Virus record (IMG/VR): IMGVR_UViG_3300009540_000001
Span: 64,001-128,000 of that record
DNA from: a virus
Taxonomy: Duplodnaviria > Caudoviricetes
Direction: 5' to 3' (one strand)
Length of the DNA: 64,000 nucleotides
Of this stretch, positions 1-63,227 are shown one piece after another. A program made the translations under genes and the position numbers. Below the pieces are notes generated by a model. That model saw only the letters and a program-made list of their open reading frames with translations. It searched no databases and was not told the origin of the DNA. Position 1 is the stretch's first letter, and the number at the start of each line of letters is the position of its first letter.

Positions 1-943
1 ACGAGGGCGAGAGGAACATCAGCTGCGCGAACAGCTTGCGCGGATCGTCGCCAGCTGTGCCTGTGAGGCAGATGCGCCGCGAGGCCTTGGCGGAGAGCTC
101 GAGCGCCGACTTCGTCTGCTCCGATTCGAAGTTGCCGAGGTAGTGGCTCTCGTCCGCGACGATCGTGTCGTACGGGAGCTGATAGAGCGGATGGGACGCG
201 GCGTGCCGGAACTCCTCGATGGCCGCCTCCGTCAGCAGCGGCAGCTTGTAACGCTCCCGCTGCGTGGGGCTCAGCTCGAGCTCGAGCGTCGCCTTCTGCG
301 CCCGCTCTCGCTCCATGCGAAGGCGGGTGTAGGAGGCGAGAACGATGTCGGCGTCCTGGGCCAGGGCCTCGGCCTCGCGCGACCCGTCCCACACGACGAC
401 GCTCCATTCCCCTCGCGTGCACCGTTCCGTTTCCTTCTGCCACGCAGCGAGGACGACGGGTGGCGCCAGGACCAGGGCCCGGCGAAACTGCCCCCGCAGG
501 CGCAGCAGGCGAAAGGCGTCGATCGCGGTGCGGGTCTTGCCGGTGCCGGGTTCCCACAACAGGAAGGTGCGCCACCAGTTCACGATCCGGGAGATGCCGA
601 GGCGCTGGTGGCTGTACGGCGTAAAGCCTGGGGTGAAGAAGCCTGCCGGGATGTCGAGGGGGACGTCTGCCTTGGCCTGGTACGCCGCCTCGGCAGCTTG
701 CCAGTCGAGCTCGGCCTCGCGTAGAAGCTTCAGGTGCTCCAAGGCGCTCTCGTCCCACGCTGCGTTCGGGGCGAGCTTGCGAATGTCCTCGAAGGTCCAG
801 CGACCGAACGGAAAGTACGCGGGAAATTGCCAGGCCCCGTCGGCGTAGACGCCGCCCCATGCGCGGGAGACCCCGTGCTCTTTGGGTGCGGGTAGCCGAA
901 AGACAGGCGTAGACTTGCGAAGTAGGTCGCCGCTTACGTGCAT
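1..943 (-). CDS. SNF2-family (SF2) helicase, 3' end runs off the window
   Basis: Manual translation from ATG 943 (AGGAGG upstream): MHVSGDLL...PYSHQRLG (Q motif), WEPGTGKT (Walker A), IVADESH (DExH), CLTGT (motif III). It is absent from the ORF track because there is no stop in the window. Confidence 0.85.
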   Translation of the reverse strand, partial: MHVSGDLLRKSTPVFRLPAPKEHGVSRAWGGVYADGAWQFPAYFPFGRWTFEDIRKLAPNAAWDESALEHLKLLREAELDWQAAEAAYQAKADVPLDIPAGFFTPGFTPYSHQRLGISRIVNWWRTFLLWEPGTGKTRTAIDAFRLLRLRGQFRRALVLAPPVVLAAWQKETERCTRGEWSVVVWDGSREAEALAQDADIVLASYTRLRMERERAQKATLELELSPTQRERYKLPLLTEAAIEEFRHAASHPLYQLPYDTIVADESHYLGNFESEQTKSALELSAKASRRICLTGTAGDDPRKLFAQLMFLSPS

Positions 944-964
944 GGCGCCCTCCTGGGAGTAGAG

Positions 965-2689
965 ATGTTCGACGGTGACTTCAATCCGATGGGAGGACAG
1001 AACGGTCCGGGTGCCTCGCACCCGAACCCGATGTTCGACTACACGACCTCCTTTGTCCCGAGGAAGCTCAAGGACCTCTTCAAGTGGGCAGAGTACCTTG
1101 GGTTCAACTCCGCGCACATTTACGCGGTAGTTCGGAAGTTCGGGGAGTACCCGATCACCCGGTTCATCTACGAGTCGACCTCTGAAGAGGAGAAGGCTCG
1201 GCACAAGAAGCTCTTCGAGGAGGACGTCCACCTCAAGGGGTTCATGACGCTCGCGTCCTACGACGTGTGGCTCTACGGCAACTCCTTCGTCAGCGTGTAC
1301 GAGCCGATCAAGCGGGACCTCATGTGCCCCGAGGAGGGGTGCAAGAGCCGTGAGGACATCACGGCGGCGGTCTACGAGTTCAACCTCGAGCGCCTCGAGT
1401 TCAAGCACGACTGCCGCGAGTGCCAGCGCAAGGGCGTGATCTCCATCGTCAAGGACGTGAAGATCAAAGAGGCCGAGCGCATCCGGCTCATCCGGTGGGA
1501 CCCGAAGCTGATCGACATCGAGCACAACCCGATCACGGGCGAGTCGGTCTACTACTACCAGATCCCGCGCGACATCGTCTCGAAGGTGAGGGGCGGCAAC
1601 AAGACGCTCATCAACCACATGCCGATGGAGATCTTGCGCGCCATGCAGGCGAACAAGACCTTCAAGTTCGGGCCCAACGCGCTGTTCCACCTGAAGATGC
1701 CGGGGCCGGCCGGCGTGCAGTCGCAGTGGGGCTACCCGCCGATCACCTCGGCGATCAAGAACTTCCTGTTCGCCTCCATCCTGCGCAAGGCCAACGAGGC
1801 CATCGCGCTCGAGCACATCACGCCGTTCCGCGTGATCCACCCGCTCTCGGCGAGCGCGCAGGGCGACCCCATCTCGACGATCAACCTCGGCCAGTGGAAG
1901 GACGAGATGGTCCGCAACCTGCGGGAGTTCCGCAAGGACCCGCTGCGCATCCAGTTCTCCCCTGTGCCCATCGGCGTGCAGAACATCGGCGGCGAGGGCC
2001 GCGCGCTCCTGACGCTCGGGGAGCTCCAGGAAGCGGAGAAGGCGATCGTCCTCTCCCTCGGTGTGCCGATGGAGTTCCTCACCGGCGGCCTCGGACAGAC
2101 GCGCGGCGAGATCACGCTGCGGATGATCGAGAACCAGCTACAGACCCACATCGAGAACCTGAACGCCCTGGTGCGCTGGATCGAGCGCAAGGTCGCCGCG
2201 TACATGTCGTGGGACACCATCTCGATGCGGCTCGCCGACTTCAAGATGATCGACGACATGGAGTCGAAGCAACTCAAGCTCCAGCTGTGGCAGTCGCAGC
2301 TCATCTCGAACTCCACGGTCGCGGAGCTCGTAGACGTCGACCTCGATCACGAGCGCAAGCAGCGCCGCGAGGACACGCTCGCCGATACCCGCGCGCAGCA
2401 GAAGACGCAGATCGAGGTGCAGAAGCTCCAGCAGTCGATCTCGCAGCAGGCGCAGCAGCAGGCGATTCAGTCGCAGGGCGGCATGGCCTACGACCAGCAG
2501 CAGATCCGAGCGCAGGCGGACATCAAGGTGCAGGAGCTCGCGCAGCTCGACCCGGGCTCGCGCCGCAGCCGTATGGACGCGCTCAAGGGCGAGGACTACG
2601 TGATGTACTGCGTCGTGCGTGACATGCTCGAGCAAGTGCAGCAAGATCAGATGCAGGCGATGAAGGCTCAAGGGCAGCAGGCGGCGTGA
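965..2689 (+). CDS. Probable portal protein with a Cys-rich insertion
   Basis: Portal-like segments (LIRWDPKLIDI, LFHLK..QWGYPPI, EKAIVLSLGVPMEFL), size about 575 aa, Q-rich coiled-coil C-terminus, first gene of the morphogenesis block. ATG 965 is preferred over GTG 938, which overlaps the helicase start. Confidence 0.65.
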   Translation: MFDGDFNPMGGQNGPGASHPNPMFDYTTSFVPRKLKDLFKWAEYLGFNSAHIYAVVRKFGEYPITRFIYESTSEEEKARHKKLFEEDVHLKGFMTLASYDVWLYGNSFVSVYEPIKRDLMCPEEGCKSREDITAAVYEFNLERLEFKHDCRECQRKGVISIVKDVKIKEAERIRLIRWDPKLIDIEHNPITGESVYYYQIPRDIVSKVRGGNKTLINHMPMEILRAMQANKTFKFGPNALFHLKMPGPAGVQSQWGYPPITSAIKNFLFASILRKANEAIALEHITPFRVIHPLSASAQGDPISTINLGQWKDEMVRNLREFRKDPLRIQFSPVPIGVQNIGGEGRALLTLGELQEAEKAIVLSLGVPMEFLTGGLGQTRGEITLRMIENQLQTHIENLNALVRWIERKVAAYMSWDTISMRLADFKMIDDMESKQLKLQLWQSQLISNSTVAELVDVDLDHERKQRREDTLADTRAQQKTQIEVQKLQQSISQQAQQQAIQSQGGMAYDQQQIRAQADIKVQELAQLDPGSRRSRMDALKGEDYVMYCVVRDMLEQVQQDQMQAMKAQGQQAA

Positions 2690-3111
2690 TGACAGAGCTG
2701 AGCAGAGAAGAAGAGCGGGAGATGATCATGCGCGGACCGCGCAACCCGCTCGAGAAACCCGCGAAGAAGACACCGGCGAAGGTTTGCTACGACGTCTTCA
2801 GTCTGTTCCGCCCGTGGCAGGCGTGCCGGCGGTGTCAGGAAGCCCTGACCTTGGGGGAGGTTCAACCTCCTCCCGAGGCTGGGGACCTCGCGTGCCCGCA
2901 TGTACGGCGTAAAGAGTTCGTCGACCTGTGTAACCGCATCCGCGCCGGAGGCCCGCAGGCCCCGACGCAGCTGCGGCTCGAGATCTGGTCGTCGCAGGCG
3001 ACGGGGGAGCGGTTCGCGGAGGTCCTGTGGGAGGAGCCTGCTCCCCAGGCCCAGGGCGCGCCGAGCGTCGCGGGCGCCGCCAAGCAAAAGAAGGTCGACC
3101 CAGAGCTGTAG
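2686..3111 (+). CDS. Hypothetical protein with CxxC...CPH (possible Zn binding)
   Basis: ATGA-coupled to the portal stop; CRRC and CPH motifs. Confidence 0.65.
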   Translation: MMTELSREEEREMIMRGPRNPLEKPAKKTPAKVCYDVFSLFRPWQACRRCQEALTLGEVQPPPEAGDLACPHVRRKEFVDLCNRIRAGGPQAPTQLRLEIWSSQATGERFAEVLWEEPAPQAQGAPSVAGAAKQKKVDPEL

Positions 3112-3119
3112 CCGCGAAC

Positions 3120-3160
3120 CCGGGGGCGACGTTCAGGTTCACACCCGACGCCGCCCCCGG
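3120..3160. terminator. GC-rich hairpin, possible bidirectional terminator
   Basis: ccgggggcgacgt...acgccgcccccgg inverted repeat just after the stop at 3111. Confidence 0.5.
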
Positions 3161-3185
3161 CCAGTACTCATCACCACTCTGAGCT

Positions 3186-3236
3186 CTACGAGCGCAGAAC
3201 GTGGATGACGAACTTGTAGATCGCGCGAATCAGCAA
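3186..3236 (-). CDS. Putative 16-aa hydrophobic peptide MLIRAIYKFVIHVLRS
   Basis: Very strong Shine-Dalgarno (GAAAGGAGGTG) 6 nt before TTG; TAG stop; downstream hairpin. Confidence 0.45.
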   Translation of the reverse strand: MLIRAIYKFVIHVLRS

Positions 3237-3280
3237 GAGACACACCTCCTTTCCGTACGACCTTCTACCTGTATTTCCGC

Positions 3281-3287
3281 TAGACTT
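3281..3287 (+). promoter_or_regulatory. TAGACTT -10-like box upstream of the RNAP gene
   Basis: The same heptamer occurs at 910 and 11780, upstream of other structural-block genes. Confidence 0.55.
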
Positions 3288-3296
3288 CGCACACCC

Positions 3297-6200
3297 ATGA
3301 GCGAAGTCACTCCCGTCCTCACGGACGCCGCCACGCTGCGCGCCAAGATTCACGAGAAGACGCAAGCCGCGCTGCGGTCGGTGTTCCCGCTCGACTTGAA
3401 GGGCCGCACGCTCGAGCTCCAGGACGTCAAGGTCCACGCGCAGGACTACAGCCCGAGCCAGCAGCGCCGCGCGCTGCTCACCGGCTCGAGTCTGTATGAG
3501 CCGGTGAAGGGCACCCTCGTGCTGAAAGACGGCGCGGGCAAGGTCGTCGACACGGCGAAGAACTTCACGCTCGCGCACGTGCCGTACCTGACGGAGCGGC
3601 ACACGCTCATCTCGGACGGCAACGAGTACCAGATGGCGAACCAGCTTCGCCGCAAGCCGGGCGTGTACACACAGCGCTCGGACAACGGCGAGCTCAAGAA
3701 CGTCTTCAACCTCGGTCGCGGGTCGAACTTCGACCTCGGGATGAACGAGGGCAAGGGGACGTTCCACATGACCTACGGGACGACCAACCTGCCGCTTTAC
3801 GCGGTGCTGCGTGGGATGGGCGCGTCGCACGAGGAGATCGCCGGGAAGTGGGGCGCGGGCGTCGCGAAGGCCAACGAAGCCGCGCACGGGCACCAGATCG
3901 AGAGCACGATCGCGAAGCTGTACGGCAAGCTCGAGCACCCGGCGCTGATCAAGCCCGGGGCGACGCACGAGGAGAAGCTGACGGCGGTCCACAAGCGCTA
4001 CGCGTTGTCGACGCTCGACCCGGAGGTCACGAAGCAGACGCTAGGCCACGGGCACAGCTCGGTCACGCCGACGGCGCTCCTCGACGCCTCGGCGAAGATG
4101 CTCCGCGTTCACAAGGGCGAAGACGTCGTCGACGACACCGACTCGCTCGCCTTCAAGACGTTCCACTCGATGGACGACTTCTTGGCGGAGCGCATTCGGC
4201 TGACGGCGCGCGCATGGGCCCCGAAGGCCCGCATGGCGCTCAACGGCAAGACGGAGATCCGCGAGGCCCTGAAGCCCGGGCCGTTCTCCTCGGCGATTCG
4301 GAAGTTCGTCACGACGTCGAACCTCGCGGCGGTTCCCCCGGGCATCAACCCCATGGAGCTGATCGACCACGCGGTGAAGGTGACGTCGCTCGGCGAAGGC
4401 GGCATCCCCTCGGACCGCGCGATCCCCTTCGACGCGCGCATGATCCACAACACGCACTTCGGGGCGCTCGATCCCGTGCGCACGCCCGAGAGCAATCACT
4501 CGGGCGTGGACATCCGCGCAACGATCGCCGCCCACCGCGACGACGCCGGCAACCTCTACACCGTCTTGCGCAACGTGAAGTCCAACAAGATGGAGTTCGT
4601 CCGCGCGGGCGATCAGCGCAAGTACGTCGTCGCCTTCCCCCACCAGCAGCTGAAGGGCGACGTCGACGCCTTCCGCGACGGCAAGCTCGAGAAGGTCGAC
4701 GCCTCTACGGTCACCCACCAGCTCGACCACATCAAGCACGCGTACTCGCCCGCGACGTCCATGGTGCCGTTCCTGCACTCGATGCAGGGCAACCGCGCCA
4801 TCATGGCCTCGAAGTTCGGGACGCAGGCGCTGCCGCTGCTCGAGCGCGAGGTACCGCTCGTGCAAGTGCGCTCGCACTTGGACAGCGGGGAGTCGTTCGA
4901 ACAGGTCTACGGGCACATGATCAACCCGACGGCGCCTGTGGCGGGGACGGTCAAGAAGGTCGACGGGGACTATGTGTGGATCGAACCGCACCGCGTAAAG
5001 AAGGCGGAGGATCGCCCTGTCCTCTATCAGAAGCGTGTCGGCCCGCACGCCTTCAACATCGAGATCGAGAAGGAGTTCCACGTTCGCGGGAACAAGTTCC
5101 CCTCGTCTTCGGACTACGGGCACCTCCCTGGGTACGTCGGGCCTGACGGCGACAGCCTCGACTTCTTTGTCGGGGATCGCCACGACGGGGTCCTTGCCGT
5201 CTACGACAAGCAAAAGAACTTCGACGGGAAGGGCTGGAAGACGACAGACAAGAAGTTCGTCGTCGGGATGAACCCCACCGAGTACGCGGCGTGGCAGAAG
5301 CACCCGGCGATGACGGCACACCCGCAAATCCGCTTCGCCAACGAGCGTCGCTTCAAAGACTGGGACGACCTGAAGTCGCACATCGACACCCACTACAAGC
5401 GTCCGGAAGGGCACGAGAAGGAAGCCGCCGAGAACCTGGTCAAGGTCCCCTACCAGACCCAGTTCCCCTTCCCCTCGAAGACCTCGCTTCACCACGACGT
5501 CATCGTCAAGCCAGGCGACAAGGTCGAGGCCGGGCAGCAGCTCGGCGAGTCGAACTACACCCGCAAGGGCACGCTCGCGCTCGGGAAGAACCTGCTCGTC
5601 GGCTACATGGCGTACCACGGCGTGAACTCCAACGACGCCATGGTGATCTCGGAGGGCGCGTCGAAGAAGCTCACCAGCGAGCACATGTACCGGGAGATTT
5701 ACCCGGTAAACGCGCGCATCGAGCTCAACACCGCGAAGCACAAGCTGTACTACGGCTCGAAGTACCAGCCGCAGCAGTACGCGCACCTCGACGCGGACGG
5801 CGTGGTCAAGAAGGGTTCGCGGGTCAACCCGAAGGACATCCTCGTCGCCGGATTGACGAAGCAGCAGGTGTCAGGGTCCGACGCCCTCGTGGGCCGCATC
5901 TCCAAGGCGCTGACGAAGCCGTACAAGGAGGTCGTGCTCGAGTGGACGCACGGCGGTCCCGGCGTCGTGGAGGACGTCGTCCGCACCGCGTCGCAGATCA
6001 CGGTGCTGATCAGCACGCAGGAGCGCATGCAGATCGGCGACAAGCTCGCCGGTCGCCACGCGAACAAGGGCGTCGTCTCGCGCATCGTCCCCGACCACGA
6101 GATGATCCGAGACGAGCAGGGCCGCCCCCTCGACGTGCTCATCACGAGCGCTGGCGTCATCAGCCGCGTGAACCCGAGTCAGATCCTCGAGACGTGCGCC

Positions 6201-8183
6201 GGCAAGGTCGCGGAGAAGACCGGCAAGCCGGTGATCTTCGACAACGCCGCCGGCGTCAACGCCGTGAAGTGGGTACGCGGCCTGATGAAGGAGCACGGCG
6301 TAAAGGACAAGGAGGTCGTCTTCGACCCGCTCACGAAGCGCCACATCACGGGCTCGGATGGGAAGGGAGTACTTGTAGGTAGACAGTATATCTACAAGCT
6401 CTTCAAGTCGACGGACACGAACTTCGCCGGGCACGGCGTGGGCCCGTACGACCTGAACGAACAGCCGCTGAAGACCGGCGGCGACGACAGCGCCAAGGGC
6501 CTCGGCAAGATGGAGTTCGACGCGTTGCTCGCGCACAACGCTCGCAACTTCCTCAACGAGGCTGCGACCGTGCGCGGCACCAAGAACGAGGAGTTCTGGA
6601 AGGCCGTGCAGCTGGGCCTGCCCATGCCCGCGCCGAAACCGTCGTTCGCGTTCAATAAGTTCGTCGGAATGCTCGAGGGTGCGGGCGTGCGCATCGACAA
6701 GCGCGGGAGCAAGTTCCACATCCTGCCGCTGACCGACAAGGACGTCACGAAGCGCTCGGCAGGGGCGATCGAGAACAACAAGACGCTCCAGGCGAAGGAC
6801 CTGAAGCCGGAGAAGGGCGGGCTGTTCGATCCCTCGCGCACGGGAGGGCCGCAAGGGACGCTGTACGCACACATCGACTTGCACGAGCCGATTCCCTCGC
6901 CCGTGTTCAAGGAGCCGGTGCGCCGCTTGCTCGGCATGACGGAGAAGCAGTTCGACAACGCGCTCGGCGAGCACGGCGGCGGGTGGTTTAAGACTCAGCT
7001 TGACGCCATCAGCCCCGACGCGAAGCTGAAAGACCTGCGCGCACGGATGACGAAGGCCAACGGCCCCGTCTTGAACGACCTCGTCAAGCAGGTGAAGTAC
7101 CTCGAGGCGCTGAAGACGCACAAGCTCAGCCCGAGCGAGGCGTACATCATCTCGAAGGTACCGGTGATCCCGCCGGTTTTCCGTCCCATTCTCCCAGGAG
7201 TCGCAGACCCCTCGCAGCTGATGGTCGCCGACGCCAACAAGCTGTACGCGCAGCTGATGGACGCAAACCACACGCTGAAGAACACTGCCTTGCCCAGTGA
7301 CTTGGGGAAGCATCGCAACGAAGTCTTCTCGACGGTCGAGGAGCTCTACGGCACGACGTTGCCGCGCGACCCGAAGCTTCAGCAGCAAAAGGTGAAGGGG
7401 TTCCTCTCCACCATCGCGGGCGTCGGCACGCCGAAGGGCGGGTTCTTCCAGCGCAAGCTGATGCGCAAGAACATGGACATCAGCGGGCGCGGCACAGCGG
7501 TGCCGGACTCGAACCTCGGCATGGACGAAGTCGGCATCCCTGAGAAGATGCTCTGGGGCATGCTCGACAAGCTCGTCGTCGCTCGACTCATGCGGAAGGG
7601 CTACCCCGCGCTCGACGCGCGCGAAATGGTCAAGAAGCAGACGGCGGCGGCGCGCGAGGCGCTCATGGAAGAGACGCGCGAGCGCCCCATGCTCATCAAC
7701 CGGGCCCCGACGCTGCACCGCTGGTCGATCGTGGCGGCGTACGCGAAGCCCGTGCAGGGCAAGACGATCCGCGTGAGCTCCTTCACGGAGAAGGGCCTCA
7801 ACCTCGACTACGACGGCGACACCTTGCAGGTGCACGCCCCGCTCACCCCGGGCTCGATCGAGGACGCCAAGAAGATGACGCTCTCGAACATGATCCTGAG
7901 CGATCAGCAGCGGAACAAGCTCCTCGCCTTTCCGCAGCACGAGGCGATCATCGGCTTCACCCTCGCAGCCAAGGGCGGCACAGGCACCGGCCCCGTCAAG
8001 AAATTCGCGACGCGCGACGAAGCCATGGCCGCCTGGCGCCGTGGAGAACTCCAGCTGAACGACGCGATCCAGGTGGCGAACGTGAAGCACGCGTACGAGG
8101 AAGAAGACGACGATTCCATCTCTCCCGACGTCGACGTATCCTTCTACCCGGCCGAACACGTCACCGGCGTGGGCCTGGAGTAA
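3297..8183 (+). CDS. rpoB: Phage multisubunit RNA polymerase: beta fused to the N-terminal part of beta', with an inorganic-pyrophosphatase-like insert
   Basis: Beta motifs: TSLGEGG, HFGALDPVRTPE, PFLHSMQGNRAIM, GTLALGKNLLV, GDKLAGRHANKGVVS, GLGKMEFDAL. Beta' motifs follow in the same frame: KPEKGGLF, VPVIPPVFRP, DISGRG, LINRAPTLHR, catalytic NLDYDGD (7800-7820). ATG 3297 lies downstream of a TAGACTT box. Confidence 0.95.
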   Translation: MSEVTPVLTDAATLRAKIHEKTQAALRSVFPLDLKGRTLELQDVKVHAQDYSPSQQRRALLTGSSLYEPVKGTLVLKDGAGKVVDTAKNFTLAHVPYLTERHTLISDGNEYQMANQLRRKPGVYTQRSDNGELKNVFNLGRGSNFDLGMNEGKGTFHMTYGTTNLPLYAVLRGMGASHEEIAGKWGAGVAKANEAAHGHQIESTIAKLYGKLEHPALIKPGATHEEKLTAVHKRYALSTLDPEVTKQTLGHGHSSVTPTALLDASAKMLRVHKGEDVVDDTDSLAFKTFHSMDDFLAERIRLTARAWAPKARMALNGKTEIREALKPGPFSSAIRKFVTTSNLAAVPPGINPMELIDHAVKVTSLGEGGIPSDRAIPFDARMIHNTHFGALDPVRTPESNHSGVDIRATIAAHRDDAGNLYTVLRNVKSNKMEFVRAGDQRKYVVAFPHQQLKGDVDAFRDGKLEKVDASTVTHQLDHIKHAYSPATSMVPFLHSMQGNRAIMASKFGTQALPLLEREVPLVQVRSHLDSGESFEQVYGHMINPTAPVAGTVKKVDGDYVWIEPHRVKKAEDRPVLYQKRVGPHAFNIEIEKEFHVRGNKFPSSSDYGHLPGYVGPDGDSLDFFVGDRHDGVLAVYDKQKNFDGKGWKTTDKKFVVGMNPTEYAAWQKHPAMTAHPQIRFANERRFKDWDDLKSHIDTHYKRPEGHEKEAAENLVKVPYQTQFPFPSKTSLHHDVIVKPGDKVEAGQQLGESNYTRKGTLALGKNLLVGYMAYHGVNSNDAMVISEGASKKLTSEHMYREIYPVNARIELNTAKHKLYYGSKYQPQQYAHLDADGVVKKGSRVNPKDILVAGLTKQQVSGSDALVGRISKALTKPYKEVVLEWTHGGPGVVEDVVRTASQITVLISTQERMQIGDKLAGRHANKGVVSRIVPDHEMIRDEQGRPLDVLITSAGVISRVNPSQILETCAGKVAEKTGKPVIFDNAAGVNAVKWVRGLMKEHGVKDKEVVFDPLTKRHITGSDGKGVLVGRQYIYKLFKSTDTNFAGHGVGPYDLNEQPLKTGGDDSAKGLGKMEFDALLAHNARNFLNEAATVRGTKNEEFWKAVQLGLPMPAPKPSFAFNKFVGMLEGAGVRIDKRGSKFHILPLTDKDVTKRSAGAIENNKTLQAKDLKPEKGGLFDPSRTGGPQGTLYAHIDLHEPIPSPVFKEPVRRLLGMTEKQFDNALGEHGGGWFKTQLDAISPDAKLKDLRARMTKANGPVLNDLVKQVKYLEALKTHKLSPSEAYIISKVPVIPPVFRPILPGVADPSQLMVADANKLYAQLMDANHTLKNTALPSDLGKHRNEVFSTVEELYGTTLPRDPKLQQQKVKGFLSTIAGVGTPKGGFFQRKLMRKNMDISGRGTAVPDSNLGMDEVGIPEKMLWGMLDKLVVARLMRKGYPALDAREMVKKQTAAAREALMEETRERPMLINRAPTLHRWSIVAAYAKPVQGKTIRVSSFTEKGLNLDYDGDTLQVHAPLTPGSIEDAKKMTLSNMILSDQQRNKLLAFPQHEAIIGFTLAAKGGTGTGPVKKFATRDEAMAAWRRGELQLNDAIQVANVKHAYEEEDDDSISPDVDVSFYPAEHVTGVGLE
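4998..5426 (+). other. Inorganic pyrophosphatase-like domain inserted in RNAP beta
   Basis: DYGHLPGYVGPDGDSLDFFVG resembles the family I PPase YG-x-x-P...DGDxxD signature; the insert is bounded by KKA and KEA. Confidence 0.7.
5698..5710. promoter_or_regulatory. Perfect-armed copy of the dispersed palindrome TTTAC-NNN-GTAAA
   Basis: TTTACCCGGTAAA; perfect-armed copies also at 8278 and 60537, about 40 copies in all. Confidence 0.6.
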
Positions 8184-8189: not shown

Positions 8190-8567
8190 GTGCCGAAGCT
8201 GTCCGACACCGTGAAGGGCGTAACCCAACGACAAGCAGCGTCGCTGCGGGGTTGGTACCGTAAGCCCGCCCCCGGCTTTTACGGGGTAAAGGACGGCTTC
8301 GACGCCGCCGCCAAAGGAGCGCACGTGAAGGTCTCGTCCGACAAGATCGCCGAGGCCCGCATGCGCGGCTACCTGCGCGTCCTCCAGAAGTACGCCCTCC
8401 TCGAGAAGTTCGACGAGCCGATCGAGGCCCTCGCGAAGCGCTTCGCGCAGAGCAACTTCGGCTACGGCGAGGACCCGAAGCCGCAGGCGAAGGGGCGGTT
8501 CCAGGGCTACGCCGGGGACCCGATGATGAGCCCGCCGAGCCCGGGTGCGACGCAGAGGAGCGTTTGA
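8190..8567 (+). CDS. Hypothetical protein (probable virion protein, KIA/KYA motifs)
   Basis: Fills the gap between the RNAP genes; coupled to the next ORF. Confidence 0.65.
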   Translation: MPKLSDTVKGVTQRQAASLRGWYRKPAPGFYGVKDGFDAAAKGAHVKVSSDKIAEARMRGYLRVLQKYALLEKFDEPIEALAKRFAQSNFGYGEDPKPQAKGRFQGYAGDPMMSPPSPGATQRSV

Positions 8568-48280: not shown

Positions 48281-48289
48281 GGGGTCTCT

Positions 48290-52435: not shown

Positions 52436-52460
52436 CGAGGCAAGATTACGGGGTAAAGAA

Positions 52461-53693: not shown

Positions 53694-53752
53694 ATAAATT
53701 CGGATGCGCAAGCATCCTACATGTCCTCATACCCGAAGTCACGTCAGATTTC

Positions 53753-54048: not shown

Positions 54049-54091
54049 CTCTCGGAACCTTGTACCGCGTAAAGGCGGCGGTTTCGCGAAG

Positions 54092-55103: not shown

Positions 55104-55661
55104 TTACACCGTGACAGTGATGGGATCGCTCGAATACGTGCTCGGCTTCACGAAGAGCATCACGTACACAAGGCCGGGCTCGAGAAGTAGGGGGCGATCC
55201 CACCTCCCGTCCGCTCTCGTCTTTACGACGTACAGAGGCGTCTCGCGCGCGCCCTTCTCGTACTCCGACTGGAAGTACACGCGGATCTCAGCGTCCGGGA
55301 TGCCGATGCCCGCCTGGGTCACGAAGCGCAGCGCGTCGGGCTCCCCGAAGTCGTGGTCGACCTTCACGCGCGCGGCAGTGCCCGAGCCGAGGGGGCCGTC
55401 GGGTTTGAAGACGCCGGAGTCAGACAAGCAGACGCCGGAGGCGGCCACCGAGAGCACCTGGTACCAGGTGTCGGAGGTGCCGGTGACGTCGTCGAAGAAG
55501 AACCGCAGCGCCTTGGGCTGGTAGTTCGGCCCCGGGATCGCGTGCGGCACGGTCGCGAGCAGGAGCGGCGGGCCGTCCTTGTTCGTCGCCACGTAGATCT
55601 CGTAGTAGGCGACGTCGTCATCGACGGGGGCTTGCCAGTACAGACGGATGCCGACGCTCAT
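55104..55661 (-). CDS. FN3/Ig-like structural protein
   Basis: LYWQAP...YYEIY...WYQVLSV. Confidence 0.65.
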   Translation of the reverse strand: MSVGIRLYWQAPVDDDVAYYEIYVATNKDGPPLLLATVPHAIPGPNYQPKALRFFFDDVTGTSDTWYQVLSVAASGVCLSDSGVFKPDGPLGSGTAARVKVDHDFGEPDALRFVTQAGIGIPDAEIRVYFQSEYEKGARETPLYVVKTRADGRWDRPLLLEPGLVYVMLFVKPSTYSSDPITVTV

Positions 55662-56482: not shown

Positions 56483-57915
56483 TCGTAGATGCCCTCGATC
56501 GTGATCAGGTGGCGCACGACGCCCGCGCTCGGGGCCGTTCCGACCTTGCGCTTCACCACCTGAATGAACTCACCCGGGCACACGGCGATGGGGACGTCGA
56601 AGCGCTCGATGATGTCCGACAACACCGTGCCGGCCGCCGCGTTCGCGGCCACCGCCTGGAAGCCCAGGGGCACACGGCGCGACGCCTTCGTCGTGGCGGA
56701 CTCCGCCGTCAAGAGGCTGACCGCCGTGTGGCCGAACGCGCAGCAGAGCTGCGCGACGTAGCCGCCGCCCGTGAGCGTCGTGCTGATCATCGACTTGACG
56801 CGGATCGACCGGACGAGGAGCGTACGCCCTGCGGCAGTACCGCTCCCGGCCGGTACCTGGAAGCTCATCAAGATGCCGTCGGTCTCGGCGACCAGCGTGT
56901 CCGTCTCCGCGAACTGTCCGCCCAGGGAGCTCGCGATGAGCGCGCTGGTCGTGTTCGTCGGGACCGCCGCGACCGGGGCCGTGTTGTTCACGTAGGAGAG
57001 CGCGGTGCCGACCGTCGCCGAGCCGGACTGGAGCAAGAGCGCCGTCCGGCCCATGGCCGCCATCGCGTTTTCGTGCGAGCGCGCGGTCGCGTACTCGCCG
57101 AGGTCGATGCTGGCGCGGGAGATCACGAGCTGCTGCGCCTGCGGCATGTTCGAGCCCGTGACGTACTGGCGGAACGTGATCGGAAGAGCGCCAGACGGGA
57201 CCAGCGTCGGAATCGACACGGGGCAGTCGAAGGCCGCCACCAGGATGTTGTTGATCCAGAACGTGACGCGGTCCTGGTGGATCCCTACGAGAAAGTCGCG
57301 CGCTTCGTTCGTCGGCCAGAGCCCCGGGTCGATGACCGCCGAGCACACGTCGTTGCTGCCGATCGCGACGATGGCCTGGAACGTGCCCGAGGAGGTCACG
57401 CGGAAGAACGCGCCGTCCGTGACGTCCGCCGTCCCAGTCGCGTACATCAACCCGAAGTCCATCACGCAGTTGGACACGAAGTCGGTGCGATGGATCGCCG
57501 CGAAAGAAAACCAGGTCGTGTACGAGCCCCAGATCGGAAAGGCGCGTTGGGACGTGACGCGCGACACACCTGCGGCGGCGACCGAGCCCGCGCTGTTGAG
57601 CGTGAGGAGGTTACCCGCGACGGCCACGGCCTGCGTCGTCACAGGCGCCGTCCACACGGATGAGTTCAACACCGTGCCGAGGAAGGGCTCCTCAAACATG
57701 ATGCTGTCCGTACCCACGCGCGAGCGGTAGTCGTTCGAAACTTCGGGCGACAGGAGGAGGGGCGCCCCCGTCACCTCGCCTGCGTCGAGCTCCGAGAGCG
57801 CGCGAACGTACCCCGACTGGTCCTCGACCTTCGGCAGGTTGACCTTGAGGTTCTTGTCGCTATCGACCTCGGCGACGTTGGCGCTGAGTTCCCCTTGGAT
57901 ACGAATGCCGCTCAT
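56479..57915 (-). CDS. Probable tail-associated protein with a lectin-like beta domain
   Basis: GGGAG RBS; DRVTFWINNILVA jelly-roll-type pattern. Confidence 0.7.
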   Translation of the reverse strand: MSGIRIQGELSANVAEVDSDKNLKVNLPKVEDQSGYVRALSELDAGEVTGAPLLLSPEVSNDYRSRVGTDSIMFEEPFLGTVLNSSVWTAPVTTQAVAVAGNLLTLNSAGSVAAAGVSRVTSQRAFPIWGSYTTWFSFAAIHRTDFVSNCVMDFGLMYATGTADVTDGAFFRVTSSGTFQAIVAIGSNDVCSAVIDPGLWPTNEARDFLVGIHQDRVTFWINNILVAAFDCPVSIPTLVPSGALPITFRQYVTGSNMPQAQQLVISRASIDLGEYATARSHENAMAAMGRTALLLQSGSATVGTALSYVNNTAPVAAVPTNTTSALIASSLGGQFAETDTLVAETDGILMSFQVPAGSGTAAGRTLLVRSIRVKSMISTTLTGGGYVAQLCCAFGHTAVSLLTAESATTKASRRVPLGFQAVAANAAAGTVLSDIIERFDVPIAVCPGEFIQVVKRKVGTAPSAGVVRHLITIEGIYE

Positions 57916-58209: not shown

Positions 58210-58746
58210 TCAGCCCAGCGTGATCGTGTACGTGAGCGTCAGCTTGTCGCCGTTGGCCAACGTGCGCTGCGTGAAGCCCAGCACGTGGTTCATGGTGCCG
58301 CTCGAGATGGCGGTGAAGAGCGCCGCCTTCTGCGCGGACTGCCCGCCGGTCGCGGTGAACTCGTTCAGCACCGTGGTGGTGTTCGTGCCGATGGTGTGTG
58401 CCACCGCGCCCTGAACGCGCCCGAGGCCGTTCGTCGTGATCTCGTTCGAGAGCACGGTCGACGCGCTGGTCTCCGTCACCGTGTCGTTCGACAGGGCGAT
58501 GAAGTTCAGGCCGCAAGCCGACGGTACGCTCGTCCCGTATCCCTGGTAGTGCAGGAAGTCCCGCCCGGCCAGGGTGATCAGGTTCCACACGCGCTCGACG
58601 GGCGCCACGTCTTCGTAGACGTAGAGCTCGCCTTTACGGCGTAGACGACGGTGGACGACGTCCAAAGAGGCCCGCCCGATCGGCACGTGGACCGCCAGGG
58701 CCTTGGACTTCAGGAGTAGGTTGACGAGGGACGCCGCGACGCTCAT
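58210..58746 (-). CDS. Tail-fibre-anchor/baseplate-type protein
   Basis: NLITLAGRD, IALSND...LSNEI, NGDKLTLTYTI; start ATG 58746 chosen from the TATGCT box 7 nt upstream. Confidence 0.65.
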   Translation of the reverse strand: MSVAASLVNLLLKSKALAVHVPIGRASLDVVHRRLRRKGELYVYEDVAPVERVWNLITLAGRDFLHYQGYGTSVPSACGLNFIALSNDTVTETSASTVLSNEITTNGLGRVQGAVAHTIGTNTTTVLNEFTATGGQSAQKAALFTAISSGTMNHVLGFTQRTLANGDKLTLTYTITLG

Positions 58747-58991: not shown

Positions 58992-59246
58992 TCAGTCGAA
59001 GACGTCGCGGGCGTAGTTGTACCCGTCGATGAAAGCCTCGTTCTCCTCCTCGTAAATCTCCGCGTCGAGATCCCAAGGAACGCCCGGGCCGTCGCCCTTC
59101 CAGTGGCCGTAGCCCCAGCCGTCGGTCAGCAGCTGTGTTCCTCCGCCCCCGCTCGGGCCCTGGCCCTCGTACACGGTCTTCGGGTCGGTGGCATACCCCC
59201 AGGCCCCGGCCCCCGTTCCCCCGCCGCGCTCATCCCACGCGGGCAT
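58992..59246 (-). CDS. Small Gly/Asp/aromatic-rich peptide (GDG family)
   Basis: DGWGYGHWKGDG. Confidence 0.6.
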   Translation of the reverse strand: MPAWDERGGGTGAGAWGYATDPKTVYEGQGPSGGGGTQLLTDGWGYGHWKGDGPGVPWDLDAEIYEEENEAFIDGYNYARDVFD

Positions 59247-60027
59247 ACTTCTCGCGCAACTTCTTTTCCACAGCCTCCTTCTGTACCATCAGCTCGCTCT
59301 TCGCCTCCTCTGCCTGCTCCTTCATCGTCTCGTAGAAGTACGTGTCGTCCCCGTCCGAGTCGATGCCCCAGACGCTCGACTCCCCGCGCACCGTCACGCC
59401 CTCGACGAGCTCGAGCGTCGCGACGACCTCAACCCCGTAGTACCACCAGGACTCCCCGTAGCTCTCGATGCGCGCGACGTCGCGGGCGATGTACTCCCGG
59501 GCCTTCAGGTCAGCGGCGGACTTCGAGTAGCCGCGCTCCCAGAGGCCTCCGAAGTAGTCGGAGAAGTTCTGCTGAAGCTTGACGTACTTGTACTCGTTCC
59601 TCCCAGGGTTGACCCGCTTGATGCACGTGTCCTCTCGGTTCCTCTCGCCCTCCCTACGCTCACGCTCTTGCGTCGCCTTGTCCGCCCAAGGCCGTACCCG
59701 GTACTTCCCGACGTGCATGACGTCCGAGTCGTCGGTCATCACGCCCGGGTAATCCCGGTCCGTGTCGTTGTCGGGCGTCACCCGGATGATGTACTGGATC
59801 TTCGGCTGCTCCCCCGTGTCTCCGAGGTCGGGGGCATCGCCGAGCGGCTCCTCCCACGTCTGGCGCTCATTCTTTGGCTCGAGCCTCCGCGCCTCCGCCC
59901 ACTCCACGGCGGGGCTCTTCTTCAGGACGCTGAAAGCGGCGCGCGCGCCGTACGTCTCGCGCGCGGCCTGGACCTTGCGCAGTCGGCGAATGTCGATCGT
60001 CGGCGCCTTGTAGATGTTTCCTTGCAT
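59230..60027 (-). CDS. Hypothetical protein
   Basis: AAGGAG RBS before ATG 60027; WWYYGVEV...SSVWGIDS. Confidence 0.75.
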   Translation of the reverse strand: MQGNIYKAPTIDIRRLRKVQAARETYGARAAFSVLKKSPAVEWAEARRLEPKNERQTWEEPLGDAPDLGDTGEQPKIQYIIRVTPDNDTDRDYPGVMTDDSDVMHVGKYRVRPWADKATQERERREGERNREDTCIKRVNPGRNEYKYVKLQQNFSDYFGGLWERGYSKSAADLKAREYIARDVARIESYGESWWYYGVEVVATLELVEGVTVRGESSVWGIDSDGDDTYFYETMKEQAEEAKSELMVQKEAVEKKLREKYARVG

Positions 60028-60037
60028 TGCGGTCTCC

Positions 60038-60250
60038 TTAGTACATGTCGTTTCGTAGCCACTTCTCTTCGTACGCGTGGCGCACGGGCGTCCAGCGGTC
60101 GTTGGGACTTCCGCCCCACGCCTCGCCGTACCCTCGGCCATTGCCGTTGCCGTCCCACCCCCGGACGAGAGGCGGCACACCGTCGCCCGAGCCGTTGGGA
60201 AATACGGGGCTTTGCCCAAGGAGGTAGGAGCCTTGGTCGTACTCCGGCAT
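60038..60250 (-). CDS. Small GDG-family peptide
   Basis: GSGDG, DGNGNGRGYG; coupled to the upstream stop. Confidence 0.6.
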   Translation of the reverse strand: MPEYDQGSYLLGQSPVFPNGSGDGVPPLVRGWDGNGNGRGYGEAWGGSPNDRWTPVRHAYEEKWLRNDMY

Positions 60251-60498
60251 CAGTACCTCTCCCAGTCGTACCCCGCCCGATACGCGTACGGCGGCGCCGG
60301 CAGCACGCGCGAACGATCCCAGCCTGCGGAGAAGTCCACGACGCACGCGCCGCCGTCGCCGCGACGGAGCTCGTTGTCGTATGCGAATGGGAGGCCAAGG
60401 CCGTCCCCATCCCCTTTCAAATACCACCCTAGCTGTACATCCCCGTTGCCGTCGGAGTCGTACCCCGGCGGCAACTGGGGTTTATTCTCTCGAGACAT
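60250..60498 (-). CDS. Small GDG-family peptide
   Basis: GGAGGT RBS; DGNGD, GDGDG, GDGG. Confidence 0.65.
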   Translation of the reverse strand: MSRENKPQLPPGYDSDGNGDVQLGWYLKGDGDGLGLPFAYDNELRRGDGGACVVDFSAGWDRSRVLPAPPYAYRAGYDWERY

Positions 60499-60548
60499 GT
60501 GCACCTCCGAGGGCTTGTACCCGGAAGTGCGCGGCGTTTACGGAGTAA

Positions 60549-60568
60549 AGAGAGCCCCCCGGCTCTCT
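60549..60568 (-). terminator. Short stem-loop terminator
   Basis: agagagcc-cccc-ggctctct immediately after the stop at 60575. Confidence 0.5.
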
Positions 60569-60574
60569 CGTCTC

Positions 60575-62203
60575 TTACAGCTTGTAGCTCGGCACGTTCA
60601 CCCGCACCGGGCCGCCCTCGATCTCCGTGCTGTGCGCTCCGTAGCGCACGTCGATCTGTGCAACCTGCATGGGCTGCACGTACTTGTACGACTCCGGAAG
60701 CGCGTTGAAGTCATCCTGCACGAAGCGCAAGAGGACGGCCTCGAGCTCCTTCATGCTCTTGCCCTTCGTGCCCTCGAGCCGCACGTTGACCTCCGCGCGA
60801 TAGGCCTTGGTCACGATGAGCAAGAGCTCGTGCGTGTCCTCTTCCTCGAACGGGCGCGGCATCGGGAAGGCCAGGCCCAGGCACGTCAGCGCGCTCTCGA
60901 ACGCCTCCCCATACCAGAGGGCGTCGAGATGCGCGGCGATCTGCTCGGCGACCTTTGCCGGCAGGGCCGGCGCGCGGACGCGCAGGTCGAAGATCACGCC
61001 CTTGAGGTTGCACAGGGTGTGATCGACCCCGGAGTACCACACGCGGCGTGTGGGCTCCGGCGGGACGGGGACGCCGGCGATGCGCGCGACCGCCGTTTGA
61101 AAGGTCTCGCCGCCCGGGGCGAACGAGACGCCGTCGCCGACGATCGCGTCGCCGCCGGCCTTGAGCGCTGCGGTACGGTGTAGCCCCTGCTTGACGCCCC
61201 CCTCGTCGACGAAGTCCCCCTCCGTCGTCGGGGGCTGCCTCGGCGTGTGGTGGTAGCGCGTCATGGTGTCATCCTCTGCGGCTTTCGCCGCAGCCGTGTC
61301 GGCGTCATTGAATAGGGTGTACCCAGGCTCTGCCTCCTCCACGAGCTCGACGCCTGCTCCCGCCTTCAACTGCTCCGCCCGCGTAGCGCGCTTGAACTTC
61401 ACGGTGTACCCGAGCGCCGCAGCGTGCGCGGCCCACGCGCGCTGGTCGTCGAGCGGAGTCGCAGAGAAACGCGGCAGCGCGTCGAAGCGGTGCGCGATGT
61501 TCTCGCCGGTCGTCTGATTGAACACCTTGCCGTTGGGCGCTCCGTTCTTCTCGAGCTCGATCACGGCCACGCGCGGCTCCTTGGTCGGCAGCGTCGTGTA
61601 CTTCGACCGCTCGATCATGGCCTGGTGCTCGCGCTGCTCCTCGTCCGTGAGCGGCGTCACCGGCACGAGGAAGCGCTCGACGGGGGACGTGGCCGGCATG
61701 CCCACCTCTTGGTTCGCGTTGCCGAGCACGAGGCTGACGGCGCCCTGCGACGTCGGGCTGAACGTCGTCACGCCCGGGCGGTGTACGGCGTTCAGCAGCT
61801 GGTGGTTCGCCCGGACCCAGGTGCGCGTCATGTGCCACTGCGCGTGAGCGAGCTGCGTCAGGTCGTAGAGGACGTTCCGGTGCTGGTCGACGATGCGCCC
61901 GGTCCAGGTGTCCGTAGCTTCGTGGGCGATGCGGTCGGAGCCGCATTCGAAGAACAGCTCGCGCGGCGGGGGCGGCGCGACACCCCCGCCCACGGCGATC
62001 GGCTGCTCGAGGTCGTACTTCGTCGCGTTCACGACGCTCACCTGGTACCCGTCGTTCTGGTACTTCGTCCACCAGTACGCGGTTCCTTTCGACGTGTCGC
62101 AGCGGTCGTACTTGGCGCCGAGGGCTTCGTGGCGCCGTACGACGCCCGTCCAGTCGCCGCTATCGGGGCCATAGAGGAAGTGCGCGGAAGGCTTGATGCT
62201 CAT
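60575..62203 (-). CDS. Large multi-segment hypothetical protein
   Basis: Likely ATG 62203; typical codon usage; no recognised motif. Confidence 0.75.
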   Translation of the reverse strand: MSIKPSAHFLYGPDSGDWTGVVRRHEALGAKYDRCDTSKGTAYWWTKYQNDGYQVSVVNATKYDLEQPIAVGGGVAPPPPRELFFECGSDRIAHEATDTWTGRIVDQHRNVLYDLTQLAHAQWHMTRTWVRANHQLLNAVHRPGVTTFSPTSQGAVSLVLGNANQEVGMPATSPVERFLVPVTPLTDEEQREHQAMIERSKYTTLPTKEPRVAVIELEKNGAPNGKVFNQTTGENIAHRFDALPRFSATPLDDQRAWAAHAAALGYTVKFKRATRAEQLKAGAGVELVEEAEPGYTLFNDADTAAAKAAEDDTMTRYHHTPRQPPTTEGDFVDEGGVKQGLHRTAALKAGGDAIVGDGVSFAPGGETFQTAVARIAGVPVPPEPTRRVWYSGVDHTLCNLKGVIFDLRVRAPALPAKVAEQIAAHLDALWYGEAFESALTCLGLAFPMPRPFEEEDTHELLLIVTKAYRAEVNVRLEGTKGKSMKELEAVLLRFVQDDFNALPESYKYVQPMQVAQIDVRYGAHSTEIEGGPVRVNVPSYKL

Positions 62204-62476
62204 GTGTTTGTCTCTTTCTTTACGGCGTACGCTTGTGTGTGCCGTGGTATGAATGGGCTGCGTCCGCACCAGGCTATCTTGCCTCTGGTAAGGACGTCGA
62301 ACCTGTGGATGTTCTCCACCGCACGGGATGTGCAGTCCTCAAGGGCGGGGAGAAGGCACAGGGCGTGATCCTGCGAGATGGCAGGGCGTGGCGGACGTTG
62401 AAGTACCTGGATGCGACGCGGGTGACGGTCGTGAAGCTTGACGGGACGGAGGTCGAAATGACGCCTTACGAGGCGA

Positions 62477-62776
62477 TCAGCACCTCTCCTTGACCCACAC
62501 CCGCTCGAGCTCCACCAGCGGCGCCTGCGTCTTCGCCGCCTCGTACTTTTCTCGGGCGGTCTTCGCCTTCTGCTCGAGCTCTTGAAGGTTCAGGAGCTCC
62601 TTCTTCAGGAACACGTCTCTGGCGTCCTCTGCGCTGTCCGACAGCGTGCACTCATGGAAGATGCGCCCGTGACTGCTCACGACGAGACGCTCGTCGAGCG
62701 TGTCTCCGGTGTTGAGCTCTTGCACGATGAGCTTGCCGTCATGTGTTGTGCGGCCATCTGTGATGTACTTCTTCAT
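62477..62776 (-). CDS. Small hypothetical protein (paralog of 53753..53986)
   Basis: ATGA-coupled; KKYITDG. Confidence 0.7.
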   Translation of the reverse strand: MKKYITDGRTTHDGKLIVQELNTGDTLDERLVVSSHGRIFHECTLSDSAEDARDVFLKKELLNLQELEQKAKTAREKYEAAKTQAPLVELERVWVKERC

Positions 62777-63027
62777 TCGTCTATCTCCCAGTCGCTTGCC
62801 CAGCTCTCGTACTGCGCGCGGAGCTTGCTGATCTCGTAGTCGTCTTCGTCGAGGGCGAAACGTATCCCGCCGCCCCCGGTCGTGTTCCCGCACTGGATCT
62901 GCGTGTGCGTCGCGGAGCTCGTTCCATCCCCCCAGCCACCCCCATCGGCCGTGTCGTACTGCGCCCCGAAACGCCATATGTACTCGTCGTAGGCGTAGAC
63001 GCTGCGAGGGTTTTCTTCGTAGCTCAC
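62773..63027 (-). CDS. Small GDG-family peptide
   Basis: QYDTADGGGWGDG; overlap-coupled. Confidence 0.65.
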   Translation of the reverse strand: MSYEENPRSVYAYDEYIWRFGAQYDTADGGGWGDGTSSATHTQIQCGNTTGGGGIRFALDEDDYEISKLRAQYESWASDWEIDE

Positions 63028-63227
63028 GGATCTACGCCTTCCTCGTAGCGTTTCTGGACGCGGTATCCGAACGTGAAGTCGCTGCTGCTCCCTCCCTGCG
63101 TGTCACCGTTCTGAACCATGCCCCACCCGTCGCCCCAGCCATCGCCTCCCGACGTGTTGTACTGCGGGCCGACGCATCCCAGCTGGTCAGGGTCTACGCG
63201 GTAAAGGTCGCGCGCGTTGTGCCTCAT
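63024..63227 (-). CDS. Small GDG-family peptide
   Basis: QYNTSGGDGWGDGWG; overlap-coupled. Confidence 0.65.
   Translation of the reverse strand: MRHNARDLYRVDPDQLGCVGPQYNTSGGDGWGDGWGMVQNGDTQGGSSSDFTFGYRVQKRYEEGVDP

Follow-up and report, generated by a model that had tools for sequence, protein, structure and literature searches.

A recurrent, evenly spaced DNA motif in an uncultured phage genome as a candidate loading site for an orphan ParB

Why would a phage carry the same short, nearly palindromic word every 1.5 kb or so along its genome, mostly inside its genes? The question is raised by a 64,000-bp stretch of DNA (hereafter the window; bases 64001-128000) of a 172,374-bp Caudoviricetes record in IMG/VR (IMGVR_UViG_3300009540_000001; 66% GC, with 123-bp terminal repeats), in which an original prediction, made from the sequence alone, had listed about 40 copies of a 13-bp palindrome, TTTAC-NNN-GTAAA, and had proposed that they are bound by a dimeric phage protein. 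Here, we show that the motif is a DNA-level signal under selection for even spacing and that it is conserved in related phages, and we put at about one in two the probability that it is a recognition and loading site, resembling parS or the operator of plasmid protein KorB, for the phage's own orphan ParB, judging by sequence comparison.

In what follows, G000 denotes the phage under study, and G001-G007 and G009-G014 denote related IMG/VR contigs. Near-identical sequences are present as assembled contigs in activated-sludge metagenomes, two of which may be the source, and none in RNA data; four base differences from G000 were seen in 10 kb, none of them inside motif sites. Megablast with 20 kb as query matched no cultured phage.

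Results

The motif occurs far more often than chance allows and has one extended arm

All 40 of the listed 13-mers are present in the window; counted against TTTAC-NNN-GTAAA, three have no mismatch, 23 have one, nine have two, and five have three. The excess over shuffled sequence is far above chance: the window contains three exact 13-mers (0.01 expected), 28 copies with at most one mismatch (0.08 expected), and 21 copies of the asymmetric core ACGSCGTAAAG (0.01 expected). One additional site, centred at 54492, was absent from the earlier list. An unbiased k-mer count identifies the asymmetric word, rather than the palindrome, as the conserved unit. Over the whole genome, the exact core occurs 58 times and its reversed control not once; the 12-mer TACGSCGTAAAG occurs 36 times as an exact match (about 0.02 expected); the 15-mer CTTTACGNCGTAAAG, with up to three mismatches, is found 90 times, compared with 3-13 times in Markov simulations of order 1-5; and a scan with a position weight matrix (PWM) returns 106-129 sites, compared with 2.5-9.6 in simulations. 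Iteration of the PWM drifted to the common codon pair GTG-AAG, and we therefore give the total as a range (about 105-130 sites).

The anatomy of the sites agrees with the original description, in which one arm was perfect, the other kept TAC, and the spacer was mostly G/C. Across the genome, 85 of the 90 15-mer matches have a single perfect 6-nt arm, and none has two. The complete arm is GTAAAG, whereas the opposite arm retains TAC and then shows only weak preferences (T/G, T/C, C/G); the spacer is mostly GSC, with a centre, CG-S-CG, that is conserved in G000. Where TACGSCGTA occurs in this genome, it is nearly always extended by AAA on at least one side. The asymmetry of the G000 site is real and not an effect of sampling.

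Codon choice and orientation identify a DNA-level signal, and its spacing is even

To place the sites relative to genes, we used our own gene calls, which rest on codon usage (228 genes; 93% of the genome coding), so that the coding and intergenic classes are approximate. By these calls, 67 of the 90 15-mer sites lie inside genes and 23 are intergenic, which, with non-coding sequence making up 7% of the genome, amounts to a roughly 4-fold intergenic enrichment; at about seven sites the TAA of the motif serves as a stop codon. Inside genes, the motif imposes rare codons, as had been proposed: the peptide Y[GA]VK occurs 13 times (1.1 expected), and its valine is encoded by GTA, which accounts for 6% of valine codons, in all 13 cases. 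When synonymous codons are shuffled inside genes, the count falls from the 58 cores observed to 19.5 (maximum 24), most of the survivors being intergenic sites that the shuffling does not touch, and a codon-frequency model expects 0.19 cores inside genes, where 38 are observed (an approximately 200-fold excess). The motif is thus a signal in the DNA, at neither the protein nor the RNA level. A peptide motif is excluded as the cause by the rare GTA in every Y[GA]VK and by the loss of the excess on codon shuffling; an RNA hairpin is likewise excluded, the potential stem being mostly only 3 bp long and the flanks of intragenic sites folding like background.

The orientation of the sites is accounted for by the same coding cost. 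There are three affordable ways of placing the word in a gene, for which codon cost predicts shares of 57%, 25%, and 18% and for which we observe 55%, 13%, and 18%, the first of these being placement on the gene's own strand in the frame TAC-GSC-GTA-AAG; overall, 41 sites point with the gene and 24 against it. Because these shares are what codon cost predicts, the tendency to follow gene direction is a coding-cost effect, and the direction of transcription is irrelevant to the site. Such indifference to orientation argues against models in which the motif works in RNA, as a promoter, or as a stoperator.

Successive sites are separated by about 1.5-1.9 kb, in line with the roughly 1.5 kb first suggested, and the gaps are significantly regular: their coefficient of variation (CV) is 0.61, compared with 0.98 ± 0.10 for random placement, with none of 5000 random placements reaching a value as low, and only two gaps are shorter than 300 bp where 12.9 would be expected. 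Even spacing of the sites is therefore selected.

Eight or nine intergenic sites have an A-rich tract and then a GC-rich hairpin after the strong arm, an arrangement that on the opposite strand reads as hairpin, T-rich tract, and CTTTAC, and so looks like a terminator. Hairpin modules with the same A/T tract are also found without the motif, and the 65 oriented intragenic sites have no adjacent hairpin and flanks that fold no better than background. The suggestion that several sites sit at gene ends or terminators is thus borne out in part, by these sites, by the intergenic fraction as a whole, and by the stop codons. We read the intergenic and hairpin-associated placement as sites settling in free sequence, and not as function.

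Related phages carry the motif, several of them as a perfect palindrome

With the RNA polymerase (RNAP) beta-beta' fusion protein of G000 as query, we collected 13 related IMG/VR contigs, and with the ParB alignment we collected 45. The two contigs G001 and G002 (about 70% RNAP identity) have the same motif. Conservation in relatives, which the original prediction had called for, is seen here for about half of the alignable sites, which are kept at orthologous positions, the remainder having turned over; conserved sites are identical at 12-15 of 15 bases, compared with about 67% identity in the flanks. The same asymmetric motif is present in G014 despite its 49% GC, and G003 and G004 have TAC-N3-GTAAA with other spacers. 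In G009, G010, G012, and G013, most copies match both arms of the 13-bp palindrome TTTAC-N3-GTAAA perfectly, the spacer being free (in G009, 21 of 32 sites do so). The enrichment in relatives is restricted to a spacing of 3. Relatives with the palindromic form have an evenly spaced site about every 6 kb (about 1 per 5.8 kb in G009, with a spacing CV of 0.47), and the spacing CV in G003 is 0.51, compared with about 0.98 for random placement; even spacing is thus conserved across lineages (G000, G003, and G009). The perfect palindromes with free spacers suggest that the ancestral element was a classical dyad for a dimeric protein.

There is no enrichment of the motif in the more distant G005, G006, G007, Salmonella phage Arash, or Vibrio phage D69 (34-46% RNAP identity), and a search of the motif-less G005 and G006 for some other genome-wide motif yielded nothing convincing. 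RNAP beta, beta', and sigma are found in the virions of Arash, which is a lytic myovirus (PMC10585845). We also observed that the hexamer repeat GCTACG/GGCTAC is hugely over-represented in G001 (18 occurrences of the 12-mers, 0.01 expected); it is probably a coding repeat.

An orphan ParB is co-distributed with the motif

Just outside the window, the phage encodes a ParB (Table 1) that exceeds the cut-offs of TIGR00180 parB_part (65.9 bits; cut-off 58.45) and of Pfam HTH_ParB (PF17762; 25.4 bits; cut-off 22.6), with a ParB_N match of 22-24.7 bits that falls slightly below the Pfam cut-off. The protein aligns to structures of Myxococcus xanthus ParB, Spo0J, Noc, and KorB, and its helix-turn-helix (HTH) region aligns to ParB, Noc, and KorB chains; in sequence, it is closer to chromosomal ParB and Noc than to KorB. 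The motifs for binding cytidine triphosphate (CTP) are kept, namely the arginine patch AGRRRR (of the GxxRxxA type) and the ENLQR box (ENLQRENMSP).

This ParB appears to stand without a partner ATPase: AAA_31, the only ParA family searched, has no match in the genome at E≤1, and the ParB N-terminus lacks a ParA-binding motif of the LG[KR]G[LFI] type. Classical segregation is accordingly unlikely. A search for the canonical recognition sites of the family (parS, the Noc-binding site NBS, and the KorB operator OB) found none in the genome; there is no parS-like 16-mer with fewer than three mismatches, and no other recurrent palindrome. We rejected a ParABS partition system on the grounds that no ParA was detected with AAA_31, that the parS consensus is missing, and that the sites are even over 172 kb. 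A ParB-dependent thymine dioxygenase system was also excluded: the ParBs of the ParB-activated 5mYOX system have no obvious DNA-binding domain (PMC13229309), whereas that of G000 has an HTH, and a search for the Tet/JBP dioxygenase family PF12851 gave no match in the genome at E≤1.

In viral loci that encode a ParB, the motif is enriched where the recognition helix of the ParB has the form G-x-[VI][ST]Q-x-[LM]. Within the RNAP clade, the motif is enriched in all 11 genomes or contigs with this helix (G000-G004 and G009-G014) and in none of five others, of which G006, G007, Arash, and D69 have no ParB and G005 has a ParB with a different helix (WVSYHHK); the nominal probability of this separation is 1 in 4368, but these genomes share ancestry, and there was likely only one gain. 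Nine G000 proteins share the phyletic pattern of the motif: ParB, one SNF2 ATPase (484 aa), and seven proteins without a family match. ParB is the sole one of the nine with a recognisable sequence-specific DNA-binding domain.

A possible mode of action and the explanations that compete with it

If the motif is the loading site of this ParB, a ParB dimer would read the dyad TAC-N3-GTA through its HTH domains, with one arm extended to GTAAAG. Binding would trigger CTP-dependent closure, and the clamp would then slide off the site, as described for chromosomal ParB and plasmid KorB. With even sites every 1.5-2 kb or so (about 6 kb in relatives), the whole phage chromosome could become loaded with ParB, and the resulting coat may organise or compact the genome, mark it as phage DNA, and/or modulate transcription in the manner of KorB or VirB. 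The original prediction of a binding site for a dimeric phage protein gains from the palindrome with a free spacer in relatives and from a candidate, ParB, that tracks the motif in 16 genomes; it is the binding by ParB that we propose as a candidate. The accompanying idea that the sites organise, segregate, or protect the genome appears to point to the right area, given the even spacing and the ParB, apart from segregation, which the lack of a detected ParA makes unlikely.

Several points weigh against ParB as the reader of the motif. One gain within one subclade probably accounts for the phyletic match, which means that the 16 genomes are not independent. Contig L070 (14.7 kb), with the same helix type, shows no site, and L083 shows only one. 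The G000 site is truly asymmetric, with AAA on one side and a fixed CG-S-CG centre, unlike the symmetric arrangement of ParB dimers on parS. Canonical parS sites are few and clustered near the origin, and we know of no ParB precedent for about 100 sites on 172 kb. The analysis had limited power to detect ParA or remote homologues. Lastly, the eight other co-distributed proteins (seven of unknown fold and one SNF2 helicase) remain candidates.

The motif could instead be bound by some other dimeric DNA-binding protein, a phage protein of unknown fold or a host factor, with ParB having its target elsewhere, since a palindromic and evenly spaced DNA-level site fits any dimeric protein. We consider this possible though not probable. 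Most proteins of G000 match no family, and seven of the eight co-distributed proteins have no Pfam match; on the other hand, no DNA-binding domain is seen in these eight, and the ParB requires a specific site in a genome with no other recurrent palindrome or canonical parS. Within the clade, moreover, it is the type of helix that tracks the motif, as G005 illustrates. A host factor is made unlikely by the persistence of the motif in phages of 48%-66% GC, which probably have different hosts. Frequent, even, intragenic words in both orientations are also a hallmark of Chi and of uptake sequences, and a word read by an enzyme, whether as a T5-type nick site, as a target of base modification, or as a Chi- or uptake-like guide for a nuclease, recombinase, or translocase, would find possible readers in the two PD-(D/E)XK nucleases and two SNF2 ATPases that the phage encodes, one SNF2 protein sharing the phyletic pattern of the motif. 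We nevertheless regard such a role as unlikely: Chi, uptake, and nick sites are asymmetric and one-stranded, whereas in several relatives the palindrome is perfect and its spacer free; neither enrichment nor even spacing would be expected of modification targets; and the PF12851 search gave no Tet/JBP dioxygenase.

A transcription signal for the phage's own sigma factor and RNAP, be it a promoter element, a stoperator-like roadblock, or a pause or termination site, is suggested by the presence of that RNAP, by a full sigma-70-type factor encoded beside parB, by the 4-fold intergenic enrichment, and by the eight or nine intergenic sites that resemble an intrinsic terminator, CTTTAC prolonging the T-rich tract behind a GC-rich hairpin. 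However, three quarters of the sites are intragenic and have no hairpin, and their orientation is what codon cost predicts, which speaks against the roadblock originally envisaged; terminator-like hairpins bearing this A/T tract are also seen where there is no motif, and a simple terminator scan gave counts at or below the shuffle level. There is no second conserved element at promoter distance and no conserved flank beyond 15 bp, and of nine sites between minus-strand genes, seven point away from the genes. Sites at 45768 and 52445 had been proposed to overlap -10 boxes, but a sigma-70 scan of 34-54 kb of the window found one promoter-like site (1.8 expected) and none at either position. Better-placed promoter-like motifs exist, GGGTATAAG in early regions and CTAGACTT just upstream of late genes (see below), and G005 retains the sigma factor yet has no motif. 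Taken together, these observations make a transcription signal very unlikely.

Comparison with known site-protein systems

Loading by ParB would place the motif nearer to KorB/OB or ParB/parS than to MatP/matS, the analogue originally named. KorB of the IncP plasmid RK2 is, like the proposed reader of the motif, a CTP-dependent clamp of the ParB family with an HTH, and its operator OB (core TTTAGCGGCTAAA; PMC11790492) is likewise a 13-bp palindrome, of the form TTTA..S..TAAA with an odd G/C centre, whose copies are dispersed over the replicon. The two differ in their inner dinucleotides, which are swapped (CG in the phage, GC in OB), and OB sites are symmetric and mostly intergenic or near promoters, whereas those of G000 are asymmetric, mostly intragenic, about four times denser, and even. 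RK2 has 12 OB sites on about 60 kb, which is roughly the 1-per-6-kb density of G009 and G010, and KorB acts at a distance by sliding. KorB, however, works with KorA and the ParA-type IncC, whereas no ParA was found in the phage with AAA_31, and the replicon here is a large phage that encodes its own RNAP and whose relatives appear to be lytic. Chromosomal ParB-parS and Noc-NBS share with the phage system the protein family, the CTP-binding motifs, and a palindromic cognate site, and Noc, as an orphan paralogue of ParB, in addition has tens of scattered sites; parS and NBS differ in being 16-bp sites without a spacer, none of which is found in G000, and Noc sites occur about once per 60 kb, compared with once per 1.5 kb in G000.

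At first glance, the 5+3+5 palindrome, repeated to organise a DNA domain, resembles matS of E. coli. However, the arm sequences differ from those of matS, MatP belongs to the ribbon-helix-helix proteins, and matS sites, about 1 per 35 kb, occur in a single macrodomain. The stoperators of cluster A mycobacteriophages such as L5 are similar in being tens of 13-bp sites over a phage genome that one phage protein binds, but they are asymmetric, lie mainly in short intergenic regions in one direction relative to transcription, and serve a lysogeny repressor, whereas the orientation of the phage motif follows codon cost, most of its sites are in genes, and its ancestral form appears palindromic. Chi and the DNA uptake sequences USS and DUS are also over-represented short words that are evenly spaced, occur on both strands, and favour certain frames within coding sequence; they are, however, asymmetric words of host genomes read by host machinery, whereas the motif described here is a dyad that is particular to one subclade of phages and persists at very different GC contents.

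Sites, neighbouring genes, and other elements

The sites of the window are listed in Table 1 together with the genes and elements discussed here. The only close pair of sites in the window is an inverted pair (11057-11111) just inside the start of gene 11035-11772.

Table 1. Motif sites of the window and other features of the genome (w, window coordinates; g, genome coordinates; a dot marks sites given no strand)
Feature	Coordinates	Strand	Description
Motif site	w 613-625	+	strong arm GTAAAG on this strand; 1 mismatch to 13-mer; position kept in G001 and G002
Motif site	w 1119-1131	-	weak, 2 mismatches; full arm on this strand
Motif site	w 2901-2913	+	exact 11-nt core
Motif site	w 4987-4999	+	weak, 3 mismatches; right arm full
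Motif site	w 5698-5710	.	perfect 13-bp palindrome; spacer atypical
Motif site	w 6292-6304	+	exact 11-nt core; left arm degenerate
Motif site	w 8278-8290	+	perfect 13-bp palindrome
Motif site	w 9879-9891	+	exact core; within RNAP beta'C gene; position kept in G001 and G002
Motif site	w 11057-11069	+	exact core; position kept in G002; inverted pair with 11099
Motif site	w 11099-11111	-	exact core; 42 bp from 11057 copy
Motif site	w 14494-14506	+	exact core
Motif site	w 14779-14791	-	weak, 3 mismatches
Motif site	w 15561-15573	-	exact core
Motif site	w 16861-16873	+	spacer variant
Motif site	w 19070-19082	+	exact core; left arm degenerate
Motif site	w 20782-20794	+	exact core; TAA is stop codon of gene 19939-20793
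Motif site	w 23087-23099	+	exact core
Motif site	w 24692-24704	+	exact core
Motif site	w 27233-27245	+	spacer variant
Motif site	w 27777-27789	+	spacer variant
Motif site	w 30581-30593	-	exact core
Motif site	w 33783-33795	+	weaker, 2 mismatches
Motif site	w 34308-34320	+	intergenic; exact core, then GC-rich hairpin
Motif site	w 35484-35496	+	spacer variant
Motif site	w 38114-38126	+	exact core
Motif site	w 38492-38504	+	spacer variant
Motif site	w 40346-40358	+	exact core
Motif site	w 41085-41097	+	weaker, intergenic; on - strand, short hairpin before T-rich arm
Motif site	w 42535-42547	+	exact core
Motif site	w 44337-44349	-	intergenic; exact core
Motif site	w 45768-45780	.	intergenic; two near-complete arms
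Motif site	w 48289-48301	-	exact core; overlaps stop of gene 48290-52096
Motif site	w 50751-50763	-	1 mismatch
Motif site	w 52445-52457	+	then A-rich tract and hairpin; second partial copy past hairpin (bidirectional terminator-like)
Motif site	w 54061-54073	+	intergenic
Motif site	w 54486-54500	-	extra 15-mer site, 3 mismatches; outside earlier list
Motif site	w 55222-55234	-	1 mismatch
Motif site	w 58633-58645	-	exact core
Motif site	w 60537-60549	+	perfect 13-bp palindrome; intergenic; abuts hairpin
Motif site	w 62219-62231	-	intergenic; exact core
Motif site	w 63193-63205	+	spacer variant
parB	g 60002-61081	-	359 aa; 2.9-4.0 kb upstream of window base 1
Sigma-70-family factor	g 59191-59976	+	regions 1.2, 2, and 4; Cys-rich insert near N-terminus
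RNAP beta-beta'N fusion	w 3297-8183	+	with separate beta'C, the genome's only RNAP
RNAP beta'C	w 9236-11035	+	separate gene
Two PD-(D/E)XK nucleases and two SNF2-family ATPases	g 56895-57797, 61580-62341, 62895-64943 (into w 1-943), 158758-160212	-	
Element of about 40 nt	g 2169-2319, 12447-12595, 14525-14648 (two), 16137-16606		

The genes for the sigma factor and ParB adjoin tail to tail (convergently) in every one of the 15 related loci examined, even where identity is only 23%; a complex prediction for ParB with this sigma factor scored 0.00, which speaks neither for nor against binding. The RNAP genes are preceded by a portal gene (window 965-2689; identified as portal by synteny with phage Arash), and the RNAP fusion has a weak inorganic-pyrophosphatase-like match (E 0.005) at residues 604-659. 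Further along the plus strand, a 992-aa protein of the structural block (window 20827-23805) contains an intein, with Hint/intein-splicing and LAGLIDADG matches at residues ~184-549.

Other short elements recur in the genome. A promoter-like word that reads GGGTATAAG on the opposite strand recurs before early-looking gene blocks on the minus strand (intergenic at genome 2-16 kb and 131-148 kb, and at window 53237-53752) and is over-represented in G003 (7 occurrences, 0.14 expected); it looks like the -10 region of the real early promoter. A word near CTAGACTT(A/C)G lies 10-20 nt before the starts of several late or structural genes (window 3112-3296, 11773-11806, 26771-26812, and other short gaps in the plus-strand structural block) and is a candidate promoter or leader element for the phage sigma factor and RNAP. 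The element of about 40 nt in Table 1, in which an imperfect inverted repeat around CCGGCACGT...ACGCCGG comes after a T-rich run, has five intergenic copies in the first 17 kb.

Discussion

ParB-type CTP clamps are familiar from the segregation of chromosomes and plasmids and, in the case of KorB and VirB, from gene regulation. In a subclade of large Arash-like phages, a group for which packaging of its own RNAP and sigma factor has been shown elsewhere, the whole chromosome may be a dense and even ParB-loading array (up to 1 site per 1.5 kb, at a cost in rare codons) from which an orphan CTP-switch clamp coats the phage DNA, and this coat might serve as a self-mark and mobile platform, for example by steering the phage sigma factor and RNAP, much as the sliding clamp of T4 steers late transcription, or as a shield or means of compaction while phage nucleases act on host DNA. 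Taken as a whole, this extended proposal is speculative, and we consider it doubtful. A link to the transcription machinery is nonetheless worth testing, given the convergent sigma gene beside parB and the existence in bacteria of ParB-fold fusions to sigma-70 domains (PMC12704722). The role of orphan ParBs on phages is an open question (PMC12704722). A literature search for the motif strings returned nothing relevant, and in our search we did not find such a phage arrangement described.

Should ParB loading prove correct, the genome would carry the densest natural ParB-loading array known to us, and the lineage would represent a new viral way to organise or label a chromosome. The lineage offers a readable case, in which a canonical ParB occurs without a detected ParA and a coding cost is paid for 30 to more than 100 regular copies of a dyad, and both the site and the protein are short and easily synthesised, which makes the idea directly testable. 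Even if another protein turns out to be the binder, a conserved, even, and codon-overriding site offers a firm starting point for studying an unknown function at the DNA level in an uncultured clade of phages.

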